Below, piece by piece: positions 5,701 through 50,168 of a stretch of 64,000 bases of DNA. The stretch's first letter is position 1; every line of letters begins with the position of its first letter. The stretch spans positions 23,908 through 87,907 of the forward strand of contig CAINOH010000009.1 of assembly GCA_903851445.1 (NCBI GenBank), written 5' to 3'. The translations under genes and the position numbers were made by a program. Under the pieces are notes generated by a model. The model ran no database searches, was not told the DNA's origin, and saw only the letters and a program-made list of their open reading frames with translations. The stretch is from an uncultured Candidatus Micrarchaeota archaeon. GTDB lineage: Archaea; Micrarchaeota; Micrarchaeia; Norongarragalinales; CAINOH01.

Positions 5701-6141
5701 ATGCACGCGCATAAATTAAACAGGTGCCGCGGCCAGGTCTCGCTCGAGTACGTGGTGGTAGTCGGCTTGGTCCTTGCCGCCTGCGTGCCGGTATGGCTCC
5801 TTGCGCAGGACCGGATTTCGTCCGCGCAGACCGAGCTTGACGCGGCAACTGCACAGGCTTCTGTTGACTCGCTGGTCAAGGCAGCAGACTGGGCGGCGCT
5901 TTCAGGCTATCCTGCGAGGCGCACTGTTGACATAGAACTTCCGCATTCTATCGAGGCCGCGCTTGTCGAAGGACGCGAGGTGCGGATTATTTTCCGCGGC
6001 TCTTCAGGACTGACTGAAGCCTACGGAGTTTCCGAGGCCAACCTCACGGGCGCCATCCCGACCGGCGGCTTGAAGGCAAAGCTCGTCGTGGCTGCAAGCG
6101 AGTCCCAACCGGGAAACGTCACCATTGGGCTGGTGGGCTGA
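5701..6141 (+). CDS. Class III signal peptide (archaeal type IV pilin-like) protein
   Basis: N-terminus ...RCRGQVSLEYVVVVGLVLAA: basic residue, G-Q, E at +5, then a hydrophobic helix. This is the prepilin-peptidase substrate pattern. A TATA-like gtttatat lies ~25 nt upstream. Confidence 0.6.
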   Translation: MHAHKLNRCRGQVSLEYVVVVGLVLAACVPVWLLAQDRISSAQTELDAATAQASVDSLVKAADWAALSGYPARRTVDIELPHSIEAALVEGREVRIIFRGSSGLTEAYGVSEANLTGAIPTGGLKAKLVVAASESQPGNVTIGLVG

Positions 6142-6143
6142 AG

Positions 6144-6539
6144 ATGCGGCGCGGCCAGGTAGCCTTGGAGTTTGTCGCGGCCTGCATGCTGCTCATACTA
6201 GTTTGGACGGCATTCTCGATGCTTTCGAGCGAGTGGAACCGCCGCACCTACGCGGTCGCGGCATCATCGGATGCGCAGGCCCTGCTTGAAAAAATCTATG
6301 GCGAGGCTGTTGACGCAAAGGCTGCCGGTGCGGGATACTCGCATTCGTTTGAAGTGCCTGCGGCGCTTGCAGGCAACGCCGACTATTCCATCGAGCTTTA
6401 CCCGCCATACTCGACGATACAAATCACGTTCAAGGACTCAAGCGCATCGGCAGTGCTCCCGTTCAGCTCGTTCGGGGGGAGCGTGGGCTGCTGCACAGTA
6501 AAAGTGACCAATGACAATGGAAACGTCGTGTTCTCATAG
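6144..6539 (+). CDS. Class III signal peptide pilin-like protein
   Basis: MRRGQVALEFVAACMLLILVW... Confidence 0.65.
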   Translation: MRRGQVALEFVAACMLLILVWTAFSMLSSEWNRRTYAVAASSDAQALLEKIYGEAVDAKAAGAGYSHSFEVPAALAGNADYSIELYPPYSTIQITFKDSSASAVLPFSSFGGSVGCCTVKVTNDNGNVVFS

Positions 6540-7086
6540 GCGCAGGGGCCAGGTGCTGAGCGCGGAAATCGTGCTCGCCACATTCGTGTTCGTGCTGGCT
6601 GTTGCCATCATCAACCACGCATACTCGCGCACGCTTGAGGGCGCGCTTTCTGCCACTCTCGGCCAGGGCGACGTGCGCGCCTATTCAATCCTGCTCCTGG
6701 ACAGCCAGGGTGCACAGCCCGACTGGGACTATGCAAGCCACGATGCCAGGCCCATTACTTTGTCTTCCAACGGCTCAATCAACATCACAAAAGCTGCGTA
6801 CCTTGTCGCGCTGCTTGCTGACAATGAGAGCGCCACGCTCTCGGCGCTCTCTGCCGGGCCGTACAAGATAGGCATAAAGGTGACCGGACAGGACGGAAAA
6901 CCAATAGTTGCGCCGTGCCCGGGGTGCAGCTGCGGCGGAAAGTGCACGGTCACGCTTGAACATTACCCTTCCACGGATTCAAACAACATATTCACAATAG
7001 ACGGCCCCTATAGGCTGGTTAACTCGGACGGCTCCGGCGCAGGCGTTGCAGAGGTCCGGCTGCTGTTCTACAGGACGTACGACTGA
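6511..7086 (+). CDS. Class III signal peptide pilin-like protein; start overlaps the previous gene
   Basis: ...HRRRGQVLSAEIVLATFVFVLAVAII; Cys pair in the C-terminal half. The start could also be the ATG at 6517. Confidence 0.55.
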   Translation: MTMETSCSHRRRGQVLSAEIVLATFVFVLAVAIINHAYSRTLEGALSATLGQGDVRAYSILLLDSQGAQPDWDYASHDARPITLSSNGSINITKAAYLVALLADNESATLSALSAGPYKIGIKVTGQDGKPIVAPCPGCSCGGKCTVTLEHYPSTDSNNIFTIDGPYRLVNSDGSGAGVAEVRLLFYRTYD

Positions 7087-7100
7087 AGGTTGATGATGCT

Positions 7101-7649
7101 TTGGAAAAAGGAAACGGGCGCCGCGGGATTGCTTTTGCAATAGACTCGCTGTTCGCAATTGCGGTCATAGCGGCATTTGCAATCTCCGTTGTGCCGGCGT
7201 ATTCGGCATTCGCTACAGCAGGCGACGCGGCTCCGGACGCGCTTTCAAGGCTGTCCTCTGCAACGCTCCGCTCGATGTGCCTGGCTACTGCAAGCGAGCT
7301 TTCGGCATCCTCTGCGCAAATCACCGGGTTATATTCAGACGGCAACCTCACTGCGAACGATTCGGAAATGACTGCGTGCCAGCTCATTGCACGGCAATCT
7401 GTTGGAAACAATGAATCAATCGCAAGGGCGCGCAACATAACAGCGGAAATCTACGGTCCCCTCATCCCGGCCGCCGTTGGGATGGCGGTCTATGCGAACG
7501 GCACGCTAGTCTACAACTCCACTTCCCAGCCGCAGTCTCCCCTGGCGCTGCACTCGTCCAAGGCGTTCGTCTACACTTACGGAAAGACGGGGGCCGCAAA
7601 AGAGCCCATCGGGCCTGTTGAAATCGAGGTGAGGGCGTGGTGGCCATGA
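7101..7649 (+). CDS. Pseudopilin/minor pilin-like protein
   Basis: MEKGNGRRGIAFAIDSLFAIAVIAAFAISVV: basic-G then a hydrophobic helix. Confidence 0.55.
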   Translation: MEKGNGRRGIAFAIDSLFAIAVIAAFAISVVPAYSAFATAGDAAPDALSRLSSATLRSMCLATASELSASSAQITGLYSDGNLTANDSEMTACQLIARQSVGNNESIARARNITAEIYGPLIPAAVGMAVYANGTLVYNSTSQPQSPLALHSSKAFVYTYGKTGAAKEPIGPVEIEVRAWWP

Positions 7650-8197
7650 GACGGGGTTTTGCCTACTCGCTTGCCGCGCTTGCCCTCGCGCTGGCTGTTG
7701 CGCAGGCTGCGATAATATTCTCGTCAGCATCAGCAGGCGCTGCTTACGGCCGCGTCTCGCAAAAGGATGCCGTGGAGTTCGCCGCGTTCTCCGAGGGCGT
7801 GGCCGGGATGCGGTCCGGCCTGCTCCTAAGCTGCAGCCTTGCTGCGGCTGCTGCCAAGGAATACGAGGAGTCCACCAACAAGTCATTTGTGAACAAGTCG
7901 TGCGTGCTCTCTTTCCTTGCAAGGAACGGCAACGTGACCAGCGGGAACTGCCCTGGCGAGTCGTTTGCGCTGCTTGAGACTTCGAACGGGCAGTATTCGC
8001 TCCTGGCCTGGTCCCTTGGCAACGGCCTAAGGAAGACGGGAACAATCGACGTTTCGGACGAGCTGCTGTCGGTCTACGCGACTGCCAATGAGACGCACAC
8101 TACTTGCTCCGCAACGGCATCGGTCACGGTTGCGACGATTGACAATCACACTTCGATTACGCGCACATGCGTTGCGGCAAGAACAGTCGCAAACTAA
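7637..8197 (+). CDS. Pseudopilin/minor pilin-like protein
   Basis: MVAMRRGFAYSLAALALALAVAQAAIIF... Overlaps the previous stop, so operon-coupled. Confidence 0.55.
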   Translation: MVAMRRGFAYSLAALALALAVAQAAIIFSSASAGAAYGRVSQKDAVEFAAFSEGVAGMRSGLLLSCSLAAAAAKEYEESTNKSFVNKSCVLSFLARNGNVTSGNCPGESFALLETSNGQYSLLAWSLGNGLRKTGTIDVSDELLSVYATANETHTTCSATASVTVATIDNHTSITRTCVAARTVAN

Positions 8198-8877
8198 TAG
8201 CCCGTTTGACAGGCGGGCTTTTATTTGGCGCGTCATTAATAGTGCCATGCGGCGTTGAAGGCAAAAGCCGCGCAAAACGCTTTGGGCAAGAGGGAAGAGG
8301 GATTTTGGCTGAATCTGTGACTGAGGACTCCTCCGAAAAGGCCATCGAGACAGTGGTGGACCGGCTCTACGACCTTGTCAAGGCAAGGAAGGCAATATCG
8401 GTCAGGGAAGTGTCCAAGGCGCTCTCACTCCCAGAACCCCAGACTGAGAAGCTTGCCAGGCTGCTTGAATCGTCAAAGCTCGTGCAGGTAAACTACAGCC
8501 TCTCCGACATAATCATCACAACAGTCGATGAAGCCAAGGCTGCCCCGGCAGCTTTCGCCGCAAGCAATTCCGACTCGGCCGAACGCGAAATACTGACCGC
8601 CTGCGAAGACGTTGCAAGGGCAAAAACCCTCCTTGAATTTTCCAAGCGCCAGACCGAACAGGTTTCAAGGAAGCTTGCACAGGCCGCATCACAGCAGGCG
8701 GCAAGCATCAAGGCAAAGGACGTGAGCCCGGCCTTGAGAAAGCGTCTTGAAAGCCTCGAGTCAGACGCCGCCGAGGCCAAAGGGTATGCAAACGCCGCAC
8801 TTGTGGCGGCAACGGTACTCGAGGAGGCCAGCCAGAAGCTTTCGCAGGCCGCAACACGCAAGGGTGCAAGGCAATGA
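8167..8877 (+). CDS. Hypothetical protein with a putative winged-helix segment and long coiled coil; translationally coupled to the pilus ATPase
   Basis: IETVVDRLYDLVKARKAISVREVSKALSLPEPQTEKLARLLESSKLV is wHTH-like, followed by an A/K/Q-rich coiled coil. The stop overlaps the ATPase start (ATGA). The true start is uncertain; a TTG near 8305 or GTG near 8317 is possible. Confidence 0.4.
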   Translation: MRCGKNSRKLIARLTGGLLFGASLIVPCGVEGKSRAKRFGQEGRGILAESVTEDSSEKAIETVVDRLYDLVKARKAISVREVSKALSLPEPQTEKLARLLESSKLVQVNYSLSDIIITTVDEAKAAPAAFAASNSDSAEREILTACEDVARAKTLLEFSKRQTEQVSRKLAQAASQQAASIKAKDVSPALRKRLESLESDAAEAKGYANAALVAATVLEEASQKLSQAATRKGARQ

Positions 8878-10370
8878 AAGTCATAGACTCCTACAACGTC
8901 GAAAGCGAGGGCATAACCGCCCAGGTCCAGATTGTGGACGACGAGACCTTCACCAACATGTACCTGCTCCATCGCACCAAGGTGCGAAAGTCAACCGCGG
9001 CCGTGATGGACTTCCTCAAGCAGCGCATCATCGACGCAGTCAACATCAGCGCGTCAGAAATAGCGAACTTCAGCGCGTGGGAGACCCTACGCGTGAACGT
9101 CAAGAAGAAGGCCCACGAGCTGGTGCGGACAGAGCTCGGCGGCCTGAACGCCAAGGAGGAGGACCTGCTTGTCGGAAAGCTCCTGCAGGAAATGCTCGGG
9201 ATAAGCGAACTTGAGTTCTTCCTGTGCGACGAACAGCTTGAGGAGGTCGTGGTGATTTCCTCAAAGGACCCCGTGTGGGTGTACCACCGGAAATACGGCT
9301 GGCTCCGGACCAACGTCGACATCCAAACCGAGGACCAAATCCGCAACTACGCCGCGATAATGGGAAGACGGGTTGGCAAGCAAATCACAAACCTCGACCC
9401 GCTCATGGACGCCTACCTGCTCTCGGGCCACCGCGTGAACGCGACCCTCGCGCCGGTCTCTGCAAAGGGCAACAGCATCACGATACGCAAGTTCCGCAAG
9501 GACCCGTTCACCGTGATAGACTTCATCAGCCCCAGCCTCAACACCACTTCTGCGGAGGCCCTTGCATTCATCTGGCTTGCGGTCCAGTACGAGATGAACC
9601 TCCTTGTGGGCGGGGGGACGGCAAGCGGAAAGACCTCCTTCCTCAACGCAATCCTCGCATTTACGCCGCCCAACCAGCGCATCATCAGCATCGAGGACAC
9701 GCGCGAGCTCATGCTCCCAAGCTACCTGCACTGGACGCCGATGGTCACGCGGCTGCCAAACCCCGAAGGCAAGGGCGGCGTGAGCATGCTTGACCTGGCA
9801 GTTAACTCGTTGCGCATGCGGCCCGACCGCATCGTGCTCGGCGAGGTGCGCAGGCAAAGCGAAGCCGAGGTGCTGTTCGAGGCAATGCACACCGGCCACG
9901 CGGTATACTCCACGGTGCATGCCGATGACGCCGCCCAGATGAAGAGCAGGCTCATAAGCCCGCCGATAAACCTGCCCGAACAGTTCCTTTCCGCAATGCA
10001 CCTTGCGGTTGTGCAGTACCGCCAGCGCAGGACCGGAATCCGCAGGACAACCGAGATTGCCGAGATAAACCCGGGCGAGAGGGGGACGAGCTTCAACGTG
10101 GTGTTCCAGTGGAACGCCCAGGACGACGCGCTTGAGAAGGTCGACGAGCACATCCGGGTGGACAACGAAATCAAGGCCCGCACCGGGATGAAGCAGAAGG
10201 AGATTACTGCAGACCTTGAGCAGAAGAGGGCAATCCTGCTTGCGATGTCGGCCGCGGGAATCAGCCACGTAGACGACGTGGGCGTGATTTTCGCAAAATA
10301 CTACAAGTCGCCAAAGCTGGTTGCCGAAAGCGCAGAGAAGGGCGCAAAGGAGATGCGAAAGCTCCTGTGA
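8874..10370 (+). CDS. Type IV pilus/archaellum assembly ATPase (FlaI/TadA/VirB11 superfamily)
   Basis: Walker A GGGTASGKTSFLNAIL, then SIEDTRELML, VLGEVRRQSEAEVLFEAMHTGH (Asp/His boxes); N-terminal FlaI-like domain. Confidence 0.9.
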   Translation: MKVIDSYNVESEGITAQVQIVDDETFTNMYLLHRTKVRKSTAAVMDFLKQRIIDAVNISASEIANFSAWETLRVNVKKKAHELVRTELGGLNAKEEDLLVGKLLQEMLGISELEFFLCDEQLEEVVVISSKDPVWVYHRKYGWLRTNVDIQTEDQIRNYAAIMGRRVGKQITNLDPLMDAYLLSGHRVNATLAPVSAKGNSITIRKFRKDPFTVIDFISPSLNTTSAEALAFIWLAVQYEMNLLVGGGTASGKTSFLNAILAFTPPNQRIISIEDTRELMLPSYLHWTPMVTRLPNPEGKGGVSMLDLAVNSLRMRPDRIVLGEVRRQSEAEVLFEAMHTGHAVYSTVHADDAAQMKSRLISPPINLPEQFLSAMHLAVVQYRQRRTGIRRTTEIAEINPGERGTSFNVVFQWNAQDDALEKVDEHIRVDNEIKARTGMKQKEITADLEQKRAILLAMSAAGISHVDDVGVIFAKYYKSPKLVAESAEKGAKEMRKLL

Positions 10371-11269
10371 CGGTGCAAACGACAGTGGAAAGCAAGGTCC
10401 CGATGCTGCCGTTCTCGCTCGTGCCACCCCAGTTTACCTTCGAGCTTGCAAGCAAGACCCGGCCCCTTGGCACCGCAGTGCAGGCCTGGGTGCCCATCCT
10501 TGGCGACGACCTCCTGGGCGCAGGCTATGCCGACATCGACGCCGACACCTACGCAACCGCGTGCGTTCTCAACGCATTCACGAACTTCTTTGCCGTGTTC
10601 ATACTCATCGACTTGCTAGGCGCGCTCACGCTCACGCCGATGCTCCTGGTTGCGGGGCTTGCGTCCGCAGGCGTGGGCATTGCAACATTGGTCTCGTGCC
10701 TCGTCTGGCCCCAGATCATCGCAACGCAAAGGCGGCGCGCCATTGACGCGAACATGATTGCCGCAACCCGCCAGCTGCTCATACAGATACGCTCGGGCGT
10801 CCCGCTCTTCAACGCGCTCCTTTCGGTAAGCTCCGGCCACAGCAAGGTCTCGGAGGAGTTCTACAAGATTGCGGCCAAGCTCAACGCGGGCGTTGACGAG
10901 ACCGACGCGCTTGCCGAGGCGTCAGCAACCTCGCCGTCCATACAATTTCGCAAGGTGGTGTGGCAGCTTTCCAACGCGCTCAAGGTCGGCACCGACGTGG
11001 GCCTGGCGCTCGAGGCCACTCTTGGCGAGCTCGAACTCGAGCAGACCGAGCAAATCAAGAAGTATTCGCAGGAGCTCTCGCCCCTCACGATGATTTACAT
11101 GATAAGCGCAATCATCGTGCCGAGCCTGGGCGTGACAATGCTCATAGTCGTGGGCTCCCTGATGTCGTTCCCGATTCCCAAGGCAACGCTTGTCGTGGTG
11201 TTCATCGTGATGATAGGGTTCCAGGCGTTCTTCCTCAACTTCGTCGCCTCGCGCAGGCCGGTGGTGTGA
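10367..11269 (+). CDS. Pilus assembly membrane platform protein, TadB/FlaJ-like (T2SS-F domain), first half of a split platform
   Basis: Polytopic. T2SSF-like block IAATRQLLIQIRSGVPLFNALLSVSS...TDVGLALEATLGELE. Start overlaps the ATPase stop. Confidence 0.75.
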   Translation: MTVQTTVESKVPMLPFSLVPPQFTFELASKTRPLGTAVQAWVPILGDDLLGAGYADIDADTYATACVLNAFTNFFAVFILIDLLGALTLTPMLLVAGLASAGVGIATLVSCLVWPQIIATQRRRAIDANMIAATRQLLIQIRSGVPLFNALLSVSSGHSKVSEEFYKIAAKLNAGVDETDALAEASATSPSIQFRKVVWQLSNALKVGTDVGLALEATLGELELEQTEQIKKYSQELSPLTMIYMISAIIVPSLGVTMLIVVGSLMSFPIPKATLVVVFIVMIGFQAFFLNFVASRRPVV

Positions 11270-11272
11270 AAG

Positions 11273-12298
11273 ATGAAGACCAGTCGCATAATCACAAGGG
11301 CGTCCTACGTCCTGCCGCGAAAGTGGGTCGACTCGATTGGAAGGCTGCTTGTCAAGGGCGGGTTCAATACCACCAAGCACAGGTACCTGATAGGCCTTGC
11401 CATGCTTGGCGCTCTCTGTTTGGGCGCCCTGTCCAGCTTCATCTGCCTCGCTGTGATGCGCGACTATAAGTTCGCGGCGTTCTCCGGGCTCCTTATAATC
11501 ATGGCGGAAGTCGGCGGCGCGTACTTCATCCTCAAGTCAACTGCATTCCAGCGCAGCAAGAGGATAGAGAGCGTGCTCCCTGACGCTTTGCGCATCATCT
11601 CGGCAAACATGCGGGCCGGGATGACAATAGAGAACGCGCTGTGGTCCGCCGCAAGGCCCGAATTCGGCCCATTTAAGGACGAGCTGAGCAGGGTGGCTGC
11701 TGACACGTTCGGTGGGATGCCGATAGAGGATGCGCTCCTTTGCATGCCAGAGCGCGTTGACTCGCGGCTCGTGGAGCGCTCAATCGACCTGATGGTAGGC
11801 GGCCTGCGCCTGGGCGGACGCATGACCGACCTGCTTGACCACATCGCAGCTGACATCTCTTCGCGCCAGAGCCTGCAGCGTCAAATCGAGACTTCGACAA
11901 CGACCTACGCCATATTCATCGTGTTCTCGGCGCTCGTAGCCGCACCGATGCTCTTTGCAGTCTCCACGTTCTACTCGGAAATCAACGAGAAGACGCTCTT
12001 GGGTTTCACCGAGGGGATGCAGGTGAATTCGGCCGCCCGCGCACGCATAGCCTCGTCCGGCATCCCTATGCTTTTGCCATCAGCGCAGGCTGACCAGATA
12101 GGGTTTGCTGACATCCGCCTCTTCTCGCTCGGCGTAATCATCATCACCGCGTTCTTCGCATCCATAATCATCGCCCAGATAAAGGAAGGCGAGGCACACA
12201 GGGGCCTTTCCTACGTCCCCATTTTCGTCGCAGTTGCAATGACCGTGTTCCTGCTTGGCCTCTACGGGCTTGAGACCGCGTTTGCGGGAATGATATAA
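11273..12298 (+). CDS. Pilus assembly membrane platform protein, TadC/FlaJ-like (T2SS-F domain), second half
   Basis: LRIISANMRAGMTIENALWSAARPEFGPFKDELSRVAADTFGGMPIEDAL, then TM helices. 4 nt after the previous gene. Confidence 0.75.
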   Translation: MKTSRIITRASYVLPRKWVDSIGRLLVKGGFNTTKHRYLIGLAMLGALCLGALSSFICLAVMRDYKFAAFSGLLIIMAEVGGAYFILKSTAFQRSKRIESVLPDALRIISANMRAGMTIENALWSAARPEFGPFKDELSRVAADTFGGMPIEDALLCMPERVDSRLVERSIDLMVGGLRLGGRMTDLLDHIAADISSRQSLQRQIETSTTTYAIFIVFSALVAAPMLFAVSTFYSEINEKTLLGFTEGMQVNSAARARIASSGIPMLLPSAQADQIGFADIRLFSLGVIIITAFFASIIIAQIKEGEAHRGLSYVPIFVAVAMTVFLLGLYGLETAFAGMI

Positions 12299-12378
12299 AG
12301 GCGCAAAGCCGGCCAACAGCACGCATTAAATAAGACAGGAAAGTAATTTTTCAGGACGTTCCAAACGGTGATTATGTT

Positions 12379-12843
12379 ATGTCAAAAGGGCAAACCGCAC
12401 TCGAATACCTTGTCACTTACGGCTGGGCAATACTCGGCATCATCATCATAGTCGGCGTGCTCATCTCGTTCGGGGTGTTCAACCCGACCAAGTGGGCGAC
12501 CGTGCGCCAGCAGGGCGGATTCTCATCAATCGCAGTGCTTGACCACAGCATCACAGCAGGAACCGGCGGCGTCATGAAGATAGCTTTCCAGAACACGCGC
12601 GGAAACTCGATTACCATAACGCAGGTTGTGTCGATGGCCGGCGGGTGCGGCTGGACCGGCTCGCAGCTTCTGACTGTTGACAACCCCGTCTCAATCACCA
12701 CCAGCGCGTGCAACCAGACCACAGTCACCGGCGCAACCGTAGGCTCGGCGTACGACTTTTCCGACGTGGCCGTGACATACACCGACTCAGTATCGAGCAT
12801 GTCGCACACCGAACGCGGGTTCATCAAGGGCCAGTTCCAGTAG
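12379..12843 (+). CDS. Class III signal peptide pilin (candidate pilin of the Tad-like operon)
   Basis: MSKGQTALEYLVTYGWAILGIIIIVGVLISFGVF..., beta-rich C-terminus with Cys pairs. Confidence 0.7.
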   Translation: MSKGQTALEYLVTYGWAILGIIIIVGVLISFGVFNPTKWATVRQQGGFSSIAVLDHSITAGTGGVMKIAFQNTRGNSITITQVVSMAGGCGWTGSQLLTVDNPVSITTSACNQTTVTGATVGSAYDFSDVAVTYTDSVSSMSHTERGFIKGQFQ

Positions 12844-14641: not shown

Positions 14642-14929
14642 TCAGCGCCTAGCCTTCATCTTCTCGCCGACAAAGTTGATGAGGTCGCGGAGCTTCTTTT
14701 CCATGGTCGGGTAGTCAACGAGCTCATCCAGGCCGGTAAGCATCGACGCTACCTCGGGCTTGATTTTTAGGTACTCGCGCTCAAGCTGCTCCAGCCGCGA
14801 CGCGAGCTCGCCTATCTCATTCTGCGTACGCCTTCGGTAATCCAGGACGAAGTATATGGCAACCACGAGCACGACCATGGATGCTGCAAAGAGCCCGAAA
14901 GCGAGTGCCGACATACTGACAAGGGCCAT
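14642..14929 (-). CDS. Small membrane-anchored coiled-coil protein
   Basis: N-terminal TM helix, then a charged heptad-like segment (ELASRLEQLEREYLKIK). Confidence 0.4.
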   Translation of the reverse strand: MALVSMSALAFGLFAASMVVLVVAIYFVLDYRRRTQNEIGELASRLEQLEREYLKIKPEVASMLTGLDELVDYPTMEKKLRDLINFVGEKMKARR

Positions 14930-15240
14930 TACACTACGCCCCCCTCTATGACTGCTGACGTCAGGTCCCTAGCCTGCTTTGTGATGCTCTGCATCGCGTT
15001 GCGCGTAATCTTCCTCTCAAGCCCGGCTTTCGCATCCTGGATGCTTTGCGCCATCGCTGCAGACTCGGCGTGCGCCGCGTCAATCCTGGCCGAAAGCTCC
15101 GCCACCTTCGCAACCGCACCGTCGTGCGCCCTCTTTGCAAGGACGAACGCCACAAAAGCGCCCGCTAATGACACTAGGAAACAGAACCCCGCAACGTAGA
15201 CGTCTTCGACCATAGGAACATCAGGCAAAATCAACTGCAC
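14929..15240 (-). CDS. Small membrane-anchored coiled-coil protein
   Basis: TM helix then an Ala/Lys-rich helix. Overlaps the upstream pilin stop by 10 nt and the downstream gene by 1 nt. Confidence 0.4.
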   Translation of the reverse strand: MQLILPDVPMVEDVYVAGFCFLVSLAGAFVAFVLAKRAHDGAVAKVAELSARIDAAHAESAAMAQSIQDAKAGLERKITRNAMQSITKQARDLTSAVIEGGVV

Positions 15241-15710
15241 GTCCCGACGAGCGGCCTTGCGCCAGTCTGCCTCATGGAATAGTTCATGAAGTTGTACAGG
15301 ATGTTCACCTGCACCTCGAAGGCCTTGCCGGACGCGGTATAGACGCAGGGGTTTCCGCTTGTAAAGCTTGACACGTAAATGGCGTTCTCCTCGCCAGCTG
15401 AGAATACGTGGTAGCCCGTGCTCAGGTTATTGACGTTGCCCACGCTGTCTACGAACTGCATCTCGGTGACGTTGAGGCTGTCGGAGCCGCGGTTGGCAAG
15501 AACAAGCAGCGCGGTGCCGTTCATGACCTTGAATGCCGTGATTGAGAAGGGCGTGGCGGTCTTCCAGTAGGACTCCGACTCCCTTTCCCTGCCGGGCCCG
15601 CCCACTTGCGGGAACCAGCCCAAAAGCGCTATGACGACCATCGCCACTAGAAGCACCGCGCCCAAAATGACAAGATATTCCGTTGCGCCCTGCCCCTTTG
15701 AGCGGACCAT
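15231..15710 (-). CDS. Major-pilin-like protein (class III signal peptide), paralog 3
   Basis: MVRSKGQGATEYLVILGAVLLVAMVVIALLGWFP...; many NxS/T sequons; C-terminal ...LVGTCS. Confidence 0.75.
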   Translation of the reverse strand: MVRSKGQGATEYLVILGAVLLVAMVVIALLGWFPQVGGPGRERESESYWKTATPFSITAFKVMNGTALLVLANRGSDSLNVTEMQFVDSVGNVNNLSTGYHVFSAGEENAIYVSSFTSGNPCVYTASGKAFEVQVNILYNFMNYSMRQTGARPLVGTCS

Positions 15711-15870
15711 ACAATCACCTATATTGCAAATGAAATTGGCTTATGCAAAGGGAACGGAAAAGGGGAATAAAAAAGTAGGTTTTGGGAACAACTTGCCCCA
15801 TCGCCCGAAAGGGCACAAGGAGCAGAGGGAGAAAAAGAAAAACAAAAAAAAGAAAAAAGGGAATTGGTGC

Positions 15871-16380
15871 TTACGAGCACCTTCCAACCAGGGACTGCGC
15901 GCCCTGCTGTCGAATCCCGGTAATCGACCCCTGGGTGTAGCCGAACGCCACAATCTTGAGCTCGAACGGGTTGCCCGTCTTCGAAGTGACTCCGTTGCAC
16001 GGGTTGGTGGCGTTGACGCCTACTAAGAAAGTGAAAGGCACAGTAACCACTGCTTCCTCGCCTCCGTTGAAAGACTGGGCCGGACTCGCTACGACGTATG
16101 TAAACGTACTCGTTCCATTAGGAATTTCAATCGAAGTCAGGGTCAGTGCGTCAGAAAGCCTGTTTGAAAGCGAGAAGGTCATTGTCGTGTTGTCGACCTT
16201 GAACGAGTTTATCGCAAACGGGCTTGCACCGGACCAGTACGCCTTGGACTGCTGCTCCTTTGTAGAGCCGCCGAGCGCGGGGAACCAGCCAAGAAGGCTT
16301 ACTACTACAAGCGCGACAAGCAACACTGCGCCCAATATGACAAGATATTCCGTTGCGCCCTGACCTCTTGAGTAGACCAT
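15871..16380 (-). CDS. Major-pilin-like protein, paralog 2
   Basis: MVYSRGQGATEYLVILGAVLLVALVVVSLLGWFPALGGSTKEQQSKAYWSGASPFAINSFK...IRQQGAQSLVGRCS. Confidence 0.8.
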   Translation of the reverse strand: MVYSRGQGATEYLVILGAVLLVALVVVSLLGWFPALGGSTKEQQSKAYWSGASPFAINSFKVDNTTMTFSLSNRLSDALTLTSIEIPNGTSTFTYVVASPAQSFNGGEEAVVTVPFTFLVGVNATNPCNGVTSKTGNPFELKIVAFGYTQGSITGIRQQGAQSLVGRCS

Positions 16381-16542
16381 ATCATCACCTATACCTATAT
16401 TGCAAATGAAATTGACTTATGTAAAGGAACGGAAAGGGAGAATAAAAAAGTAGGTTTTGGGCCTTGTTCTTTTGGGCGATGGGAAAACTAAAGGAATGGT
16501 GAGAAAAAGAAAAACTAAAAAAAGAAAAAAGGGAATTGGTGC

Positions 16543-17040
16543 TTACGAGCACCTTCCAACCAGGGACTGCGCGCCCTGCTGGCGAATCCCGGTAATCGCC
16601 CCAGAGGTGTAGGTGAACGCCACAATCTTGATCTCAAACGGATTGCCCGTCTTGGACGCGCCCGATGAGTAGCACGGGTTGGTGGAATTTGCGACGGTCG
16701 TAGTAACCACCGCTTCCTCGCCCCCGTTGAAGGCCTTGGCCGGCCACGCTACCGTATATGTAAACGTGCCCGTTCCATTAGGTATGTCAATCCCAGTCAG
16801 GGTCAGCGAGTCAGAAAGCCTGTTTGAAAGCGAGAAGGTCATTGTGGTGCCGTCAAGTTTGAACGAGTTTATCGCAAACGGGCTGGCGCCGGACCAGTAC
16901 GCCTTGGACTGCTGCTCCTTTGTAGAGCCGCCAAGCGCGGGAAACCAGCCAAGAAGGCTTACCACGACAAGAGCGACAAGCAAGACTGCGCCCAATATGA
17001 CAAGATACTCGGTCGCACCCTGCCCTCTCCTAAACTGCAT
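16543..17040 (-). CDS. Major-pilin-like protein, paralog 1
   Basis: MQFRRGQGATEYLVILGAVLLVALVVVSLLGWFPALGGSTKEQQSKAYWSGASPFAINSFK..., ~85% identical to paralog 2. Confidence 0.8.
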   Translation of the reverse strand: MQFRRGQGATEYLVILGAVLLVALVVVSLLGWFPALGGSTKEQQSKAYWSGASPFAINSFKLDGTTMTFSLSNRLSDSLTLTGIDIPNGTGTFTYTVAWPAKAFNGGEEAVVTTTVANSTNPCYSSGASKTGNPFEIKIVAFTYTSGAITGIRQQGAQSLVGRCS

Positions 17041-17233
17041 TGTAAACCACCTTAAATGAAAATGGACTAAGAAATCAAGATGCCGAGTTTATTTAAATAG
17101 GTTGCTTAACTCCGGCGTTTTCGCGCAAACCCAACGCCCAACGCCATACTTTCTCCTCTAATAAAAGCGATGGCTTTTTAAAGAGCCGAACAGAAATGAC
17201 ATAAAATAATTGATACAAAAAGGTGAACTGCTG

Positions 17234-17620
17234 ATGTCTGAAACAAAGAGGGGCCAGGGCGCGTTCGAGTACATTCTGATGCTGTCGGGAGTGCTCCTGA
17301 TAGTGATACTCATAATATTCATACTCCAAGGGACGATAACGGGAACAAACAACACTATGGGAACACAGCAAAACACGCTCAACAGCACAGTAAACGTGGA
17401 CATAGTACCGCAATACACGCAATGTTTGATAGTCACAAGTGCAACTGGCAGCATCACCGGACCATCATACCCCTGCTGCGTCCTTAACGGAGCCGCAAAC
17501 CTTGCCGCATGCACAGCAGCAGGATGCGCCGGAGTACCTGGGATTGTTCAATGCACCCAAACCACACTTGCCAGCTGTCCGACAAGCCAGTTCAACAGGA
17601 AAATAGGAAGGTGCGCGTAA
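17234..17620 (+). CDS. Cysteine-rich mini-pilin (family member 1)
   Basis: MSETKRGQGAFEYILMLSGVLLIVILIIFILQGTITGTNNTM... then PCC...C...C...FNRKIGRCA. Confidence 0.7.
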   Translation: MSETKRGQGAFEYILMLSGVLLIVILIIFILQGTITGTNNTMGTQQNTLNSTVNVDIVPQYTQCLIVTSATGSITGPSYPCCVLNGAANLAACTAAGCAGVPGIVQCTQTTLASCPTSQFNRKIGRCA

Positions 17621-17662
17621 GCGCACACTTTCCCCATCTTTCTTAAGAGGTGAACAAGGAAT

Positions 17663-18001
17663 ATGAGACGCGGACAAGGCGCATTTGAATACATACTCAT
17701 GCTTTCGGGGGTACTGCTGATTGTGATAATCATCATATTCATACTCCAGGGGACAATCGGCGGGGCGAACAACACGATGACAGCACAGCAAAACACCTAC
17801 AACACGTCAGTGTCCGTGGATATCGTGCCCCAGTACACGGCAAACCTAATAGTGATGAGCCAGACTGGCGGACTTGGCGGCCCATACCCCTGCTGTGAAA
17901 ACTTCGCTACGCCAGGATGCACCGGAGTAATAATCAACTGCACCGGCACGCTCAACTGCTATTCAAGCAGGTTCGACAGGAAAGTAGGAAGGTGCGTATA
18001 A
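17663..18001 (+). CDS. Cysteine-rich mini-pilin (family member 2)
   Basis: MRRGQGAFEYILMLSGVLLIVIIIIFILQGTIGGANNTM...PCCENFATPGCTGVIINCTGTLNCYSSRFDRKVGRCV. Confidence 0.75.
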   Translation: MRRGQGAFEYILMLSGVLLIVIIIIFILQGTIGGANNTMTAQQNTYNTSVSVDIVPQYTANLIVMSQTGGLGGPYPCCENFATPGCTGVIINCTGTLNCYSSRFDRKVGRCV

Positions 18002-18042
18002 GCGCATTGCCTCTCTTTTTTTATTTTTAAATAATTGAAATA

Positions 18043-18420
18043 GTGATTGGGACTATGATGAGGCGCGGCCAGGGGGCATTTGAGTACATCCTGATGCTGT
18101 CCGGGGTGATTCTCGTGGTCATAATCATCCTGCTCATACTGCAGGGCAGCATCTCATCCACAAACAACACGCTTGCGGACAACGAGAACAAGTTTGGAAC
18201 CTATACGACGGTCGACTTTGACAACCACCGGACGCCCAACCTGTACGTGGCTGAGCAGACGGGTACTACCACAATAACAAACACGCCCTGCTGCTCGAAC
18301 GTGAACTCGTCTACAGTAAAATGCTACGGCCCGAACAGCGTATCGAGCACCACCATATGCAGCGCAAACATCACGTGCCCGTCGAAATACTTCAACAACG
18401 CAACTGGCACCTGCGGCTGA
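18043..18420 (+). CDS. Cysteine-rich mini-pilin (family member 3)
   Basis: ...MMRRGQGAFEYILMLSGVILVVIIILLILQGSISSTNNTL...PCCSNVNSSTVKCYG...CSANITCPSKYFNNATGTCG. Confidence 0.7.
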   Translation: MIGTMMRRGQGAFEYILMLSGVILVVIIILLILQGSISSTNNTLADNENKFGTYTTVDFDNHRTPNLYVAEQTGTTTITNTPCCSNVNSSTVKCYGPNSVSSTTICSANITCPSKYFNNATGTCG

Positions 18421-18482
18421 GAAAGAAATAATATAAAAAAAACATTAGCTATAGCAGGAACTTTACTACGAGGAGAATAAAA

Positions 18483-18830
18483 TTGCGGCGCGGGCAGAAC
18501 TATTACGGGATAATGCTCGTGTGCGTGCTCGCGCTCACCCTCGGCACCATCTTCCTGCTTTCACAGGCGCCGCCGGCAATCAACGCCTCGCTTTCAAGCT
18601 CGCAGGACAGGCTTGACAACGGCTCGATTTCGGGGGTTGCACCCCAAGGCGACGCGGACCTTCTTGTGCTAAGGCGCACGGGCAACGTCGCAGTCGACTC
18701 CGCCATTCCCTGCTGCGCGAACGCCAAAAGCGGATGTGGTGGAAACGCGGCCAACTGCACCTATTCAAATGGCAACAGCCTGTCGTGCTTTTCCCGGCTT
18801 TTCGACACTGACGCCGGCTCTTGCGCATAG
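18483..18830 (+). CDS. Cysteine-rich mini-pilin (divergent family member 4; TTG start)
   Basis: MRRGQNYYGIMLVCVLALTLGTIFLL...PCCANAKSGCGGNAANCTYSNGNSLSCFSRLFDTDAGSCA. An aggagaataaaa motif lies upstream. Confidence 0.55.
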   Translation: MRRGQNYYGIMLVCVLALTLGTIFLLSQAPPAINASLSSSQDRLDNGSISGVAPQGDADLLVLRRTGNVAVDSAIPCCANAKSGCGGNAANCTYSNGNSLSCFSRLFDTDAGSCA

Positions 18831-18892: not shown

Positions 18893-19078
18893 ATGAAGCG
18901 GAAAGGCCTTGGGCAGCGCGGGCAGACGTCGACGGAGTACATGCTGCTCATAGCCCTCGGCCTGACAATAGTGATTGTCTCGATCGCAATAGCAACCCAG
19001 ATCAAGGGGATGACCGACTCGCTTCTGGTGCGCGCGCAGGTTGAGCGCGAGTCCACAATCTCTATGATTGTGCGCTGA
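18893..19078 (+). CDS. Minor pilin-like protein (61 aa)
   Basis: MKRKGLGQRGQTSTEYMLLIALGLTIVIVSIAIATQIKG... Confidence 0.55.
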   Translation: MKRKGLGQRGQTSTEYMLLIALGLTIVIVSIAIATQIKGMTDSLLVRAQVERESTISMIVR

Positions 19079-19139: not shown

Positions 19140-20183
19140 TTGACAACACTTATGACGGACTTCCTGCTTTTCGCCTTTGCAGCTGCCTATTGCGCAACCG
19201 CCTGCTACATTGACATCAGGCATAGGACAATACCGGACTGGCTCACTTACGGCGGCATCGCAGCCGGGCTTGCCCTTGGCGGCCTCAACTGCCTTGCCCT
19301 GGGAGGTGCCTTTGCTTTGCAATACACGCTGATGCTTGCAACCGCGCTTGCCCTGGGCTACCTCCTGTTCGCCCTTGGCGTGTGGGCCGGCGGCGACGCA
19401 AAATTATTCTGGGCGTTTGCCGCGCTGCTTGGCGCTGCAAGCCGTGCAGACGTGCTCCTTCCGGTTGTGCTGTTTGCGGCCTCGGCGCTGCTTTTCCTTG
19501 CCTGGACGTTCGTTTCGAACGCGGGAACCATACTGAAGAAAAGAAGGGAGTGCACGCGAATAGCTGTTGATTCGGCAGCAAAGGCAGTTGGCGCGGCGGC
19601 AGTTGCCTCGCTTTTTGCCAGCGGCCTTGGCGCGGATTACATCCTTGCGGCAATCGTTGCAGTTGCATTTCTTCTTGTGCAGCTGCCGAAATACGCCTGG
19701 CTGGCGATATTGCTTGTTGCGCTTGCCTTGAACGCCGACGCAACCACAGTCGCGTTCCCGCTCTCCTTTTTGCTTGCATCCGCAATAGGGACGGTGGCGG
19801 GAATAGGCTCGAAAGTCATTGCGCCCAGCCTCACCTACAAAGTGCGCAAGGCCGACCTTGAGGAAGGGATGCTGCCAGCGTACACGGTGATTGAAAATAA
19901 CGGCAAGGCGGTGCTGTTTCGGCCAATGTTCGACTTGGGCGGAATAATCAAGGCAGCACGAAAGGAAAGCGATGTGAAAAAAATCCTCCAAAAAGCGGGT
20001 GCGATTCCGCCTGCCGGCTCAAAAATAGTCGCGGATTCCGCAGACGCGGCCGGGCTTGAAGCTTCGCAATTGCAGAGGTTAAAAAAGCTGGGAAATGTTA
20101 GATGGTTGCAAGTGCGGAGGACAACGGCATTCGCGCCGGTCCTTTGCGTTTGCTTTCTTGCGGCGCTTGCCGGGTTGTTCTGA
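19140..20183 (+). CDS. Prepilin/preflagellin peptidase (A24 aspartic peptidase, PibD/FlaK-like) with a C-terminal extension
   Basis: Two catalytic Asp motifs at canonical spacing: CYIDIRHRTIPD (D~24) and GVWAGGDAKLFWAF (GGDxK, D~86). Eight or more TM helices. TTG start. Confidence 0.75.
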   Translation: MTTLMTDFLLFAFAAAYCATACYIDIRHRTIPDWLTYGGIAAGLALGGLNCLALGGAFALQYTLMLATALALGYLLFALGVWAGGDAKLFWAFAALLGAASRADVLLPVVLFAASALLFLAWTFVSNAGTILKKRRECTRIAVDSAAKAVGAAAVASLFASGLGADYILAAIVAVAFLLVQLPKYAWLAILLVALALNADATTVAFPLSFLLASAIGTVAGIGSKVIAPSLTYKVRKADLEEGMLPAYTVIENNGKAVLFRPMFDLGGIIKAARKESDVKKILQKAGAIPPAGSKIVADSADAAGLEASQLQRLKKLGNVRWLQVRRTTAFAPVLCVCFLAALAGLF

Positions 20184-20196
20184 AGGGTAGACGAAG

Positions 20197-20625
20197 ATGC
20201 GCGGACAGGTCGGGCTGGAATTCTTCCTAATACTGGGCTTCTGCCTTGCAATGCTCACAATACTGATTTCGGACTCGGAGCGGGAGATAACCGAGAACGA
20301 AAAGCTTGACACTGCCGTGCTTTCGCTTTCAGCGCTGAACTCGGTGTCCAACGCAATCAACATCGTTGCCTTGCAGGGCAACGGCGCACAGTTGGCAGTT
20401 AGCGCGTTCGTGCCGTCAAAAAGCAAGTGCTACCTGCCGGTTGCTTCAGAGCAGCGGCTTGCTTGCGACATCGGCGACGCGTACGGCCGGCGCGTGTACG
20501 GGATGAGGCTGATGGCGATGCCGGACACCATCAACGATGCGTGCTACACCACGTACGGCTGGATGGACGTTACCGTGAAGAAGGCGGCCGGAAAGATTGA
20601 AATCTACTGCTCGGGGCAGGCGTGA
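20197..20625 (+). CDS. Class III signal peptide pilin-like protein
   Basis: MRGQVGLEFFLILGFCLAMLTILI...; Cys pairs in the C-terminal part. Confidence 0.6.
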   Translation: MRGQVGLEFFLILGFCLAMLTILISDSEREITENEKLDTAVLSLSALNSVSNAINIVALQGNGAQLAVSAFVPSKSKCYLPVASEQRLACDIGDAYGRRVYGMRLMAMPDTINDACYTTYGWMDVTVKKAAGKIEIYCSGQA

Positions 20626-20632
20626 GCGGCTT

Positions 20633-21055
20633 ATGCTTTCTGGAAGGGACGGAAAACGCGCGCAGACCTCGGTAGAGTACATGATGGCGCTTGCGATGAC
20701 CCTCGTGATCGTTGCGGCCATCATGGTCGGCGGGTTCCGCGAGCTCGAGCTTGACCTTGCGCTTGGCGCTGCAAGGATGGGCGGCACCGACTTTACCGCC
20801 GGGAACCCGGGCTACACGCTTGGAAGGGTTGACTTTACCCTTAACGAGAGTGAAAACACCATTAATGTCACGCCGCACTTCTACCTTCGCGGCGCAAGCA
20901 CGATCCCGGACGAGGACAGGATTACGGCCGGGTCCCTATGCTTTTCCAAGATACGAAGCGTGTTCCAGCCAGGCAACTTAAGCCCGAGCGCGGACTATTG
21001 TTTTGACGCGACTTACCGGCGCTACTGCGTCACTCCGGTAATGGCGCCGGCATAG
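20633..21055 (+). CDS. Class III signal peptide pilin-like protein
   Basis: MLSGRDGKRAQTSVEYMMALAMTLVIVAAIMVGG... Confidence 0.55.
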   Translation: MLSGRDGKRAQTSVEYMMALAMTLVIVAAIMVGGFRELELDLALGAARMGGTDFTAGNPGYTLGRVDFTLNESENTINVTPHFYLRGASTIPDEDRITAGSLCFSKIRSVFQPGNLSPSADYCFDATYRRYCVTPVMAPA

Positions 21056-21063
21056 GTGAGACG

Positions 21064-21600
21064 ATGAGACTGCTTCCAACTGACGACGTTTCAAGGTTCC
21101 AGCTTTTCTCGCTGCTTTTCCTCGCGGCCATACTCGCGTCCACGTTCATAGGCACGTACGCGTTTGCGGCCACGCTCCTGCTGTTTGGAATCCTTTGCCT
21201 CTTCCTAGCGCAGCCGCTTGCGCAGGCGCAGAGGAAACAGGCGTACGCGCTGTTCTGTATATTCGGCCTCTTCGGCCTTGGCGCGCTCTTGGGAAGCCTG
21301 TTAGTAGCTTCACCCGCCCAGGCGCTCGGCTTTTTCCCGCTGTTGATTGTTGGTTTTCTTGCCCTGTACGCAGTAGTCAAGCTCTACGTGGTAAGCGGTG
21401 ATGCGGAGTGCAAAGTCATCGGCTACTCCGAAGGCTACGCGATAGTCGATGTCGCACCGTCGGTGCTGGCGGCAATCCCGCCGGGAATCCACGCGGTAAA
21501 AAGCAGGCCTGTTGCGAAGGGAAGGAAGGCGCGGCTTGTCTTTGAGCGCAAGCTTTTCGGCTCCGCGTCAAAGCCAACCGGCCTTGAGACGCACTCCTGA
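21064..21600 (+). CDS. Polytopic membrane protein of unknown function inside the pilin island
   Basis: Four to five TM helices then a ~60 aa soluble tail. No class III motif. Confidence 0.4.
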   Translation: MRLLPTDDVSRFQLFSLLFLAAILASTFIGTYAFAATLLLFGILCLFLAQPLAQAQRKQAYALFCIFGLFGLGALLGSLLVASPAQALGFFPLLIVGFLALYAVVKLYVVSGDAECKVIGYSEGYAIVDVAPSVLAAIPPGIHAVKSRPVAKGRKARLVFERKLFGSASKPTGLETHS

Positions 21601-21694
21601 TTTTTGCCTAATGTTAAACGTGGGAAAAGTTGGGCCGCCACCAGCGTTGCCCTTTCGGCAGTTTTTTATCGTGCAGCATAATACTTCCTTTGCG

Positions 21695-22168
21695 ATGAGG
21701 GGACAGATGGCGTTGGAGTTCTTTTTTGCAATGGCGCTAGTCTACCTTTCGGTCTCCTGGCTGGTCAACTACCTTAATGCGGGCTACGACTCCGGCAGGT
21801 TCCTCGCATTGCGAGAGGAAAAACTTGTTGCTGCTGAAATCGCCGGCCTTGCAAACAGCGCCTGCGTGTCAAACTTGAGCGCGACAATCAACGCGCCGTG
21901 CATGACGTACATTGGAAAACCAACCGGCTACTGGCTTTACACCGACGGCAACAGGCTCATAGTCAATACCTCACTCGCGCCAGAGGCTGCGAGGGCAGTG
22001 GCGGTCTGTGATGTTTACGCCAACCTGACGGAATACAACGCGACTTTTGGCGTGTTCGAGCAGCAGCAAATGGCCTGTGATGCCAACACTTTCGAAGGCA
22101 CAGAGATATGCGTCCGGCCGGACGGCACGGGAAAGGTCGGCCTCTCAATGGGGCGGTGCACGTCATGA
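21695..22168 (+). CDS. Class III signal peptide pilin-like protein
   Basis: MRGQMALEFFFAMALVYLSVSWLV...; several Cys. The internal ATG is chosen over the long ORF from 21512. Confidence 0.55.
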   Translation: MRGQMALEFFFAMALVYLSVSWLVNYLNAGYDSGRFLALREEKLVAAEIAGLANSACVSNLSATINAPCMTYIGKPTGYWLYTDGNRLIVNTSLAPEAARAVAVCDVYANLTEYNATFGVFEQQQMACDANTFEGTEICVRPDGTGKVGLSMGRCTS

Positions 22169-22569
22169 GCCACTACCGCCGCAAGGCCAGGCGTGCGCAG
22201 TTCTTCTCGGCAGACTTTGTAGTTGCAACGGTAACGCTGTGCTTTGCGCTCGGGTTCCTCCTGCACTCCGGCCAGCTTTCGCTTGACAGTTTCTCAAAAT
22301 ACGGCCAGCACGACAACAACATAGCCGAGACAGTTGCCGCAAGCCTTACAACGCCCGGCGCGCTGCCGGTTGCTCCGGCAAAAATGCCGCATACTTGCTG
22401 GGAATACGACAACGGGACGAATTCGACACCGGACTGCGCGTCGGTAATTGACGGCACCGGCGGGTGCGCTGGCCGCAAGATGGACACATATTCCGCAAGC
22501 AGGCTTGTCGCGTGCGGAAACTCGGCGTGCCTTTTGACTGTAAGAAGCTGCGATGTGGTTGTGCAATGA
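22165..22569 (+). CDS. Pilin-like / signal-anchored secreted protein
   Basis: MSHYRRKARRAQFFSADFVVATVTLCFALGFLL...; Cys-rich; start overlaps the previous stop. Confidence 0.5.
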   Translation: MSHYRRKARRAQFFSADFVVATVTLCFALGFLLHSGQLSLDSFSKYGQHDNNIAETVAASLTTPGALPVAPAKMPHTCWEYDNGTNSTPDCASVIDGTGGCAGRKMDTYSASRLVACGNSACLLTVRSCDVVVQ

Positions 22570-24386: not shown

Positions 24387-24539
24387 ATGAAAAAATCGTG
24401 CCGCGGCCAGACCGCCACCGAGATGCTGCTGATAATCGCGTTCGTGGTGTTTATCGCCGCCATTGCAATAGTAATGTCCACCCAAGTGGTCGCAGGCATG
24501 GCCAACTCGGTGAGCAACGTCACGATCATACCAAAATAG
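24387..24539 (+). CDS. 50-aa mini-pilin with class III signal peptide (below the ORF-track cutoff)
   Basis: Own translation: MKKSCRGQTATEMLLIIAFVVFIAAIAIVMSTQVVAGMANSVSNVTIIPK*. R-G-Q, E at +5, hydrophobic helix; followed by a T-run at 24551-24557. Confidence 0.55.
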   Translation: MKKSCRGQTATEMLLIIAFVVFIAAIAIVMSTQVVAGMANSVSNVTIIPK

Positions 24540-50096: not shown

Positions 50097-50168
50097 TTCA
50101 GCAAAGATGCCGGCTTTTTGATGCGCCTGCGGCGATTCCTTTTTATTGCCCGCGACAATGGTCTTTCT

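Follow-up and report, generated by a model that had tools for sequence, protein, structure and literature searches.

The 64-kb stretch of DNA analysed here (64,000 nt, hereafter the window) comes from a member of the Candidatus Micrarchaeia, a DPANN lineage. At window positions 5701-12843, open reading frame (ORF) listing combined with family scans revealed ten co-directional genes on the + strand. We read this locus, with a probability of about 85%, as the core assembly cluster of an archaeal type IV pilus (T4P) of the Epd-like or 'euryarchaeal clade 2' kind, whose membrane platform is made of two polypeptides. A preliminary description of the DNA had already called it an archaeal T4P assembly locus, and the gene functions it listed were confirmed for all ten genes. 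The features of an archaeal T4P are present: a secretion ATPase of the VirB11/FlaI family, a T2SSF-domain platform, substrates with class-III-type signal peptides and, outside the cluster, an A24 prepilin peptidase. Because comparison with the literature and the scores of the ATPase both point to archaeal T4P of the clade 2 or Epd-like kind, we assign the locus there. It is neither a bacterial Tad system nor an archaellum, and it is Tad-like in its two-piece platform.

The motor is a 498-aa FlaI/VirB11-family ATPase (8874..10370, +) with a Pfam T2SSE match of 3.5e-32. Its translation contains the Walker A motif (P-loop) GGTASGKT, recognized by eye, and a pattern search located the Asp box (271-278), Walker B (320-326) and the His box (340-349). 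Against the protein data bank (PDB) the highest score fell to GspE of Archaeoglobus fulgidus (AfGspE, 2OAP; 231 bits, 1.9e-67, full length), followed by FlaI with 175 and CpaF with 157 bits. AfGspE (AF0659) is placed in clade 2, arCOG01817, in the supplement of Makarova et al. (PMC4858521). Among NCBIfam models FlaI fits the ATPase best (2.4e-85), yet with 287 bits against an equivalog cut-off of 550; the TadA-family model reaches 187 against a cut-off of 373.

The two-gene membrane platform

Downstream of the ATPase lie two platform genes, F1 (10385..11269, +) and F2 (11273..12298, +). As previously described, these are two separate proteins, each with one T2SSF domain (PF00482; 8.5e-16 for F1 and 6.4e-15 for F2). 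Hydropathy indicates four hydrophobic or transmembrane (TM) helices in F1 and about five hydrophobic segments in F2. The lengths first given, 300 and 341 aa, hold for F2 alone: the most likely start of F1 is either ATG 10403 or GTG 10385, a conserved codon with GGTG in front of it, so that F1 probably has 288 or 294 aa. The AlphaFold model of F1 (pLDDT 90.8) is all-helical, with a cytoplasmic bundle that fits onto the cytoplasmic domains of EpsF, OutF and PilC (TM-score ~0.7 on the target, probability 1.00). These relatives were found solely by comparing the fold of F1; sequence searches with F1 and F2 against PDB chains gave no meaningful matches.

In the ArlJ and UpsF models, members of the F1 family cover positions 5-250, and members of the F2 family cover 188-451 of 465 (ArlJ) and 285-434 of 484 (UpsF). 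The F1 of the window itself has no NCBIfam match, so the orthology with the N-terminal half is shown through F1-family members from other loci; the platform proteins score far below the ArlJ model cut-offs. Homology also links the F1 and F2 profiles (hhalign probability 99.2, E 1.6e-19). Together, the model alignments and this mutual homology identify F1 as the N-terminal and F2 as the C-terminal repeat of a FlaJ-type platform, and they stand in the order of the unsplit gene, N-half before C-half.

Among the matches listed, all homologues found with the F1 (119/119) and F2 (120/120) profiles are proteins of 168-389 aa that contain one PF00482 domain, have a start codon of their own and, where named, come from DPANN lineages. 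The order ATPase, F1 orthologue (~270-310 aa), F2 orthologue (~320-415 aa) recurs in 14 other DPANN loci. Since all listed homologues are single-domain proteins and the gene order recurs, the split is fixed and old rather than a local event. A FlaJ gene broken recently by a frameshift or stop codon, or only apparently by an assembly artefact, was considered and rejected, as the homologues are all single-domain and the two-gene state is conserved. The idea that a split platform is unusual for archaea likewise has to be abandoned: besides the DPANN homologues listed here, archaeal clades 1 and 2 include loci with two tadC-like genes (PMC4858521), Methanococcus maripaludis has EpdJ and EpdK (PMC4371748), and the Epd-like systems as a group have two platform genes (PMC6668835).

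A further split pair was seen in L010, a metagenome-assembled genome (MAG) of Aenigmatarchaeota, at 7616-9346 and 4 kb from the ATPase. Its two genes match the halves of ArlJ (N, 3.7e-27; C, 5.2e-13) much more strongly than the Micrarchaeia genes do, which suggests that split FlaJ-like platforms are not confined to a single pilus or archaellum lineage of DPANN.

The conservation of the locus extends beyond the platform. An identical ATPase with the same neighbours is found on several ENA metagenome contigs. Among GTDB species genomes, the closest relatives of the ATPase belong to Candidatus Micrarchaeia MAGs (92% and 87% identity), followed by Norongarragalinales (58%) and then by Woesearchaeota, Nanoarchaeota and Aenigmatarchaeota (43-51%). 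Many of the related loci retain five pilin-like genes and a winged helix-turn-helix (wHTH) gene upstream of the ATPase in the same order, and the arrangement pilin-like 1-5, wHTH, ATPase, F1, F2 is found, with variations, in Micrarchaeota, Woesearchaeota and Nanoarchaeota. Two MAGs labelled 'uncultured Methanosarcinales archaeon' (L009 and L014) also carry the DPANN-type locus, with an ATPase identity of 47-48%; the explanation is either a wrong label or contamination of these bins, or a system that extends beyond DPANN. Horizontal acquisition of the locus was considered as well; the GC profile shows no break between the locus and its flanks.

Pilin-like genes, winged-helix protein and peptidase

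Five pilin-like genes precede the wHTH gene and a sixth, gene 10, ends the cluster. Gene 1 (5701..6141, +, 146 aa) has the N-terminus NRCRG|QVSLEY followed by a hydrophobic helix, scores 20.4 bits with Pfam Class_IIIsignal (cut-off 23.7) and has orthologues at the equivalent position in DPANN loci. Gene 2 (6144..6539, +, 131 aa) begins MRRG|QVALEF, reaches only 12.1 bits with the same model and has DPANN orthologues too. In gene 3 (6517..7086, +, 189 aa), minor-pilin-like, the motif is RRRG|QVLSAEIV with the acidic residue at +6, and orthologues read Q...[SA][LIF]D at the equivalent site (K[AT]Q..[SA][LI]D); the ORF opens at 6511, the probable start according to gene callers on identical contigs being 6517. 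The minor-pilin-like genes 4 (7101..7649, +, 182 aa, TTG start) and 5 (7646..8197, +, 183 aa, with its probable start at 7646 taken from the same gene callers) carry RRG|IAFAIDSLF and MRRG|FAYSLAAL, and their counterparts in orthologous loci read KKG[FY].F[ST]LDA and KKG[VI].FT, respectively. Gene 10 (12379..12843, +, 154 aa) starts with MSKG|QTALEYLVTYGWAIL; its type is kept beside orthologous loci in other DPANN, and it is a candidate for the major pilin.

The earlier claim of class III (pseudo)pilin N-termini in five genes and a terminal one was upheld by our own motif scan, with Pfam matches sub-threshold or absent: all six proteins (6/6) have a short basic stretch, [KR]G and then an uncharged hydrophobic helix. 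The rule, [KR][GA] followed by an uncharged hydrophobic stretch, flagged 24 of the 471 window ORFs that are 50 aa or longer, 23 of them credible and one apparently spurious; 17 of the credible ones lie beyond genes 1-5 and 10. As the scan flags just 24 of 471 ORFs, finding all six small genes of the cluster among them goes far beyond chance. Genes 1, 2, 10 and most downstream pilins conform to G|Q...E[YF], that is Gln at +1 and Glu at +5 (Q+1/E+5), while genes 3-5 deviate. Six downstream pilins (16543, 17210, 17663, 18043, 46559 and 57375) exceed the Pfam threshold for Class_IIIsignal. Beyond sub-threshold Class_IIIsignal, the pilin-like proteins matched no Pfam or NCBIfam family at E values up to 1; hence there is nothing Flp- or TadE-like among them.

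Gene 4 counterparts of 900-1200 aa with the same pilin-type N-terminus occur in Norongarragalinales and Woesearchaeota (L005 4447-8058, L006 322-3906, L014 2171-4933 and L018 4885-7653). Gene 4 thus looks like an adhesin-sized minor pilin that was reduced to 182 aa in this genome.

Of the several stop/start overlaps described for the cluster, two remain: firm 4-nt ATGA overlaps join genes 4 and 5 as well as the wHTH gene and the ATPase, and are found nowhere else. Upstream, a TATA-like TTTATAT can be read ~27 nt before gene 1. Directly 3' of gene 5, the intergenic region contains a hairpin followed by a T-rich run, GGCTTTTATTTGGC (8199..8229, +). DNA alignment with two related contigs (L003 and L004) showed that its T-rich part is invariant while the flanks diverge. 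Judging from the sequence, the element is probably an archaeal oligo-T terminator and/or a TATA box at the boundary of a transcription unit. Given this conserved hairpin and T-run between gene 5 and the wHTH gene, the cluster probably comprises more than one transcription unit, and the term operon, used initially, is probably too strong. We rejected GGCTTTTATTTGGC as a recurring motif, with one match in the window against 0.74 expected by chance. A sigma-70 promoter scan returned 3 matches against 2.2 expected, a model that is uninformative for an archaeon.

The gene between this element and the ATPase encodes a winged-helix and coiled-coil protein of 190 aa (8305..8877, +), whose stop codon overlaps the ATPase start (ATGA). 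That it is a wHTH/coiled-coil protein was supported by structure prediction; its start had to be moved from 8167 (236 aa) to TTG 8305 (190 aa) because the upstream segment is not conserved as coding sequence in the alignment with the two related contigs, and because 17 database homologues measure 188-191 aa. The sole 236-aa call is that of this genome itself, and L004 has an ATG at the site equivalent to 8305. The AlphaFold model (pLDDT 75) shows a winged helix of the order H-b-H-H-b-b (residues 8-73) and then two long antiparallel helices. Foldseek matched it to SmtB/ArsR and MarR regulators, ribosomal eS25 and the winged helices of ESCRT-II; in Pfam and NCBIfam no family was matched. A profile search of 1.84 billion cluster representatives retrieved 178 clusters at E <=0.001. 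Across phyla, the domain of ~60 residues lies directly upstream of the ATPase in other DPANN loci, where, depending on the lineage, its fusion partners are long coiled coils, N-terminal regions with several TM helices, a TM segment at the C-terminus or CBS domains. Counted manually from the translation, its net charge is nearly neutral. This partner of the ATPase is the sole poorly described element of the locus; most likely it works in the cytoplasm as an accessory to the motor or as its regulator.

The A24 prepilin peptidase (19140..20183, +; 347 aa, or 343 aa if the start is 19152; Pfam Peptidase_A24 2.6e-11) lies 6.3 kb downstream of the cluster, inside an island of pilin genes from which a gene for an RsmB-type methyltransferase and one for an FAD/NAD oxidoreductase, both of them housekeeping genes, separate the locus. 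It had been correctly described as lying outside the cluster and as the only A24 peptidase found in the window; the distance of 7 kb given then was too large. Hydropathy indicates ~8-9 hydrophobic segments, the matches to Arc_PepC and FlaK are weak, and phmmer detected no paralogue in the window, which holds only one ATPase, one platform pair and one peptidase. Directly upstream of the peptidase is a pilin of Flp/EpdE size (18893..19078, +; 61 aa, 51 aa mature) with the N-terminus QRG|QTSTEY. A second pilin of this size, 50 aa long (43 aa mature), is encoded at 24387..24539 (+) and shares the cleavage site RG|QT.TE with the first. Either of the two could be the true major pilin.

Relation to known systems and rival explanations

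Platforms of two genes have been described in archaea before. Makarova et al. (2016) reported that clade 1 loci have 'two TadC components' together with five or more minor pilins, and that two tadC-like genes occur in many clade 2 euryarchaea as well (PMC4858521). In M. maripaludis both EpdJ and EpdK are needed, and the peptidase EppA acts on substrates with Gln in position +1 and Glu in position +5 (Pohlschroder and Esquivel 2015, PMC4371748). According to Denise et al. (2019), the platform is encoded by two genes of one domain each both in Epd-like archaeal systems and in Tad, a state that they read as the result of fission, with TadC as the N-half and TadB as the C-half, and they derived Tad from an Epd-like archaeal ancestor (PMC6668835). 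The main texts of both surveys do not mention DPANN or Micrarchaeota, Makarova et al. naming only 'Nanoarchaea' (PMC4858521, PMC6668835). Reports on Micrarchaeota genomes routinely include type IV pili (PMC8561730). Pili in Micrarchaeota and split platforms in archaea are thus already known, and nothing is overturned by the present locus, which adds a phylum-level group to the split-platform archaeal systems discussed as the source of bacterial Tad pili.

The Epd (EppA-dependent) pilus of M. maripaludis (clade 1 of Makarova et al.) shares with the locus an adjacent pair of platform genes with one T2SSF domain each, Gln+1/Glu+5 pilins (here genes 1, 2, 10 and the majority of the others), five or more minor-pilin-like genes, short stand-alone pilin candidates and an archaeal host. 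It differs in that here a wHTH-domain protein precedes the ATPase, and in lineage, DPANN as opposed to class I methanogens and Thermococci. Epd-like systems also have a second ATPase, FleN/MinD (TadZ-like) or FlaH-like, in the locus or close to it, of which the ORFs scanned here contained none, and a dedicated large 9-TM peptidase of the EppA type; the 347-aa peptidase of the window matched generic A24 and, weakly, Arc_PepC and FlaK models. The euryarchaeal clade 2 pili (arCOG01817 ATPases, represented by AfGspE and the PilB3 and PilB4 loci of Haloferax volcanii) include the best solved relative of the ATPase, AfGspE, which aligns over the full length; many of their loci have two tadC-like genes, and some Nanoarchaea belong to the clade (PMC4858521). 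Haloarchaeal pilins, however, lack the Q+1/E+5 signature present here.

In analogy to the established T4P model, prepilins would insert into the membrane, where the A24 peptidase would cleave them after the Gly of [KR]G|Q. The ATPase, as a hexamer, would dock on the cytoplasmic T2SSF bundles of an F1-F2 heteromer that would correspond to one FlaJ or PilC, and ATP hydrolysis would draw pilins out of the membrane into the growing filament. Genes 1-5 most likely provide a minor-pilin priming or tip complex, and the fibre itself may be built from gene 10 and/or the many pilins at 15-24 kb of the window, including the two of Flp size. The wHTH/coiled-coil protein, translationally coupled to the ATPase, may act on the motor or on transcription. 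By analogy with other T4P, the pilus likely allows the cell to adhere to a host or a surface. The genomes of DPANN archaea are tiny, and a life in attachment to host cells is assumed for them; with about two dozen pilin and pilus-assembly genes in the 64-kb window, the machine is probably central to such a lifestyle, and the locus offers a clean conserved gene set for studies of host attachment in Micrarchaeota.

Several points weigh against the assignment as an Epd-like or clade 2 pilus. The placement in a clade is a ranking of bit scores against three solved structures, not a tree. The window holds several candidates for the major pilin. Pfam Class_IIIsignal stays below threshold in genes 1, 2 and 10, and for genes 3-5 the Pfam scan returned no match to it at all, so that their designation as pilins depends on the motif and on orthologous loci having kept it. 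No TadZ/FleN/MinD-like or FlaH-like second ATPase was seen in the cluster or in the other ORFs scanned, which were a part of those in the window, and such a gene may sit elsewhere in the genome. Lastly, the wHTH protein could simply be a transcription factor.

Tad-like in its two-piece platform, the locus invites comparison with bacterial Tad/Flp pili, the type IVc pili (T4cP) assembled by TadA, TadB, TadC, Flp, TadV and TadE/F. In both, a split platform adjoins a single ATPase, the processing motif is G|xxxxEY, a Flp-sized pilin lies beside the peptidase, and there is a set of pseudopilins. The usual gene order in tad clusters is tadA-tadB-tadC, whereas the gene for the N-half comes first here. 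A bacterial Tad system received by horizontal transfer would account for the TadB/TadC-like split and for the G|xxxxEY N-termini and Flp-sized pilins, but we consider it very improbable. The ATPase is nearer to AfGspE and FlaI than to CpaF and lies below the TadA cut-off, the pilin-like proteins include nothing Flp- or TadE-like in Pfam or NCBIfam, and neither a secretin nor TadZ nor TadD/G was seen in the scanned ORFs. Moreover, the locus is conserved across DPANN phyla, its GC content equals that of the flanks, and the direction of transfer in the literature is from archaea to bacteria (PMC6668835). The likeness to Tad noted in the preliminary description therefore stands for the pilin N-termini and the nearby Flp-sized pilins; its view of the split as the bacterial arrangement does not, as Denise et al. 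argue that Tad inherited it from archaea (PMC6668835).

An archaellum operon for motility with a broken FlaJ has even less to recommend it. The archaellum (ArlI, ArlJ, ArlH) has an ATPase and a platform from homologous families and likewise handles substrates with class III signal peptides, FlaI is the best NCBIfam model for the ATPase, and JGI annotation names the platform genes 'flagellar protein FlaJ'. Nonetheless, the FlaI score of 287 is far under the equivalog cut-off of 550, Pfam and NCBIfam scans gave no matches to archaellin, ArlH or ArlF/G, and the label 'Fla-like' was accordingly dropped. ArlJ is one two-domain protein, while here the split is conserved in every homologue listed, each half with its own start codon. 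We hold this explanation to be hardly credible. A closer competitor, though an unlikely one, accepts the same machine and gives it another main job than adhesion, either DNA uptake or exchange or export of large surface proteins with class III signals, as in a bindosome or a type II secretion system. The window does encode three large proteins of this type (534-607 aa) with PEGA or DUF285/PKD domains, and a transposon screen of M. maripaludis for transformation genes mentions EpdJ and EpdK (PMC10133366). On the other hand, many small pilins typical of filament subunits are present, and the window ORFs examined included no ComEC and no Ced- or Ted-like DNA-binding or translocase genes.

For the wHTH/coiled-coil protein, an ordinary DNA-binding regulator of the pilus genes that is no part of the machine is a real possibility, if somewhat less probable than not. 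The predicted fold matches ArsR/SmtB and MarR regulators, and the survey by Makarova et al. links various transcription regulators to archaeal T4P loci (PMC4858521). Its coupling to the ATPase start codon, its position upstream of the ATPase maintained across phyla, the fusions of the domain to membrane segments, coiled coils or CBS domains and its near-neutral charge speak for an accessory of the motor instead. A bolder and rather doubtful proposal is that the DPANN-wide module, made up of five ordered pilin-like genes, the ATPase-coupled wHTH protein, a platform with collinear N- and C-halves and Flp-sized G|xxxxEY pilins, represents a distinct, undescribed branch of archaeal type IV filaments near the Epd/Tad stem. 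The wHTH domain would then be a new motor component, cytoplasmic or membrane-tethering, and not a transcription factor.

Pilin island and other features of the window

Downstream of the cluster, the pilin island contains several further runs of genes. Three tandem paralogous pilins of 159-169 aa (15231-17040, -) share RGQGATEYLVILGAVLLVA and are separated by spacers of ~160 nt; two small genes for TM and coiled-coil proteins lie downstream of them (14642-15240, -). On the opposite strand follow four short pilins of 112-136 aa (17210-18830, +) with Cys-rich C-terminal parts, three of which (3/4) have the N-terminus RGQGAFEYILMLSGV in common.

A second pilin-like run is located 3' of the peptidase (20197-23614, +). 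Its N-termini, MRG|QVGLEF, RRA|QFFSADF, RRA|FIFTADA and KG|MFSFAV, mirror those of genes 1, 3, 4 and 5 in the same order. Paralogy of this set with genes 1-5 is weak, only gene 1 and the gene at 20197 reaching 6.5e-7 in a database of 10 sequences, and there is no second ATPase or platform nearby.

The three large class-III-signal proteins are encoded farther downstream, at 46559-48382 (+), 50118-51728 (+) and 57375-58979 (-), and carry PEGA or DUF285 and PKD domains; they may be adhesins associated with the pilus, or surface proteins, and would be processed by the A24 peptidase.

Neither Rfam nor tRNA scans detected anything across the window, and the taxonomic placement was drawn from related genome contigs. 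A TnpB/IS605 OrfB-like gene at 35499-36647 (-), with matches to OrfB_IS605 (1.5e-29) and a Cas12f1-like TNB domain (2.2e-23), lies in a low-GC patch at 34-38 kb (GC 0.49-0.50 compared with ~0.57 elsewhere), and this stretch is probably an inserted mobile element.

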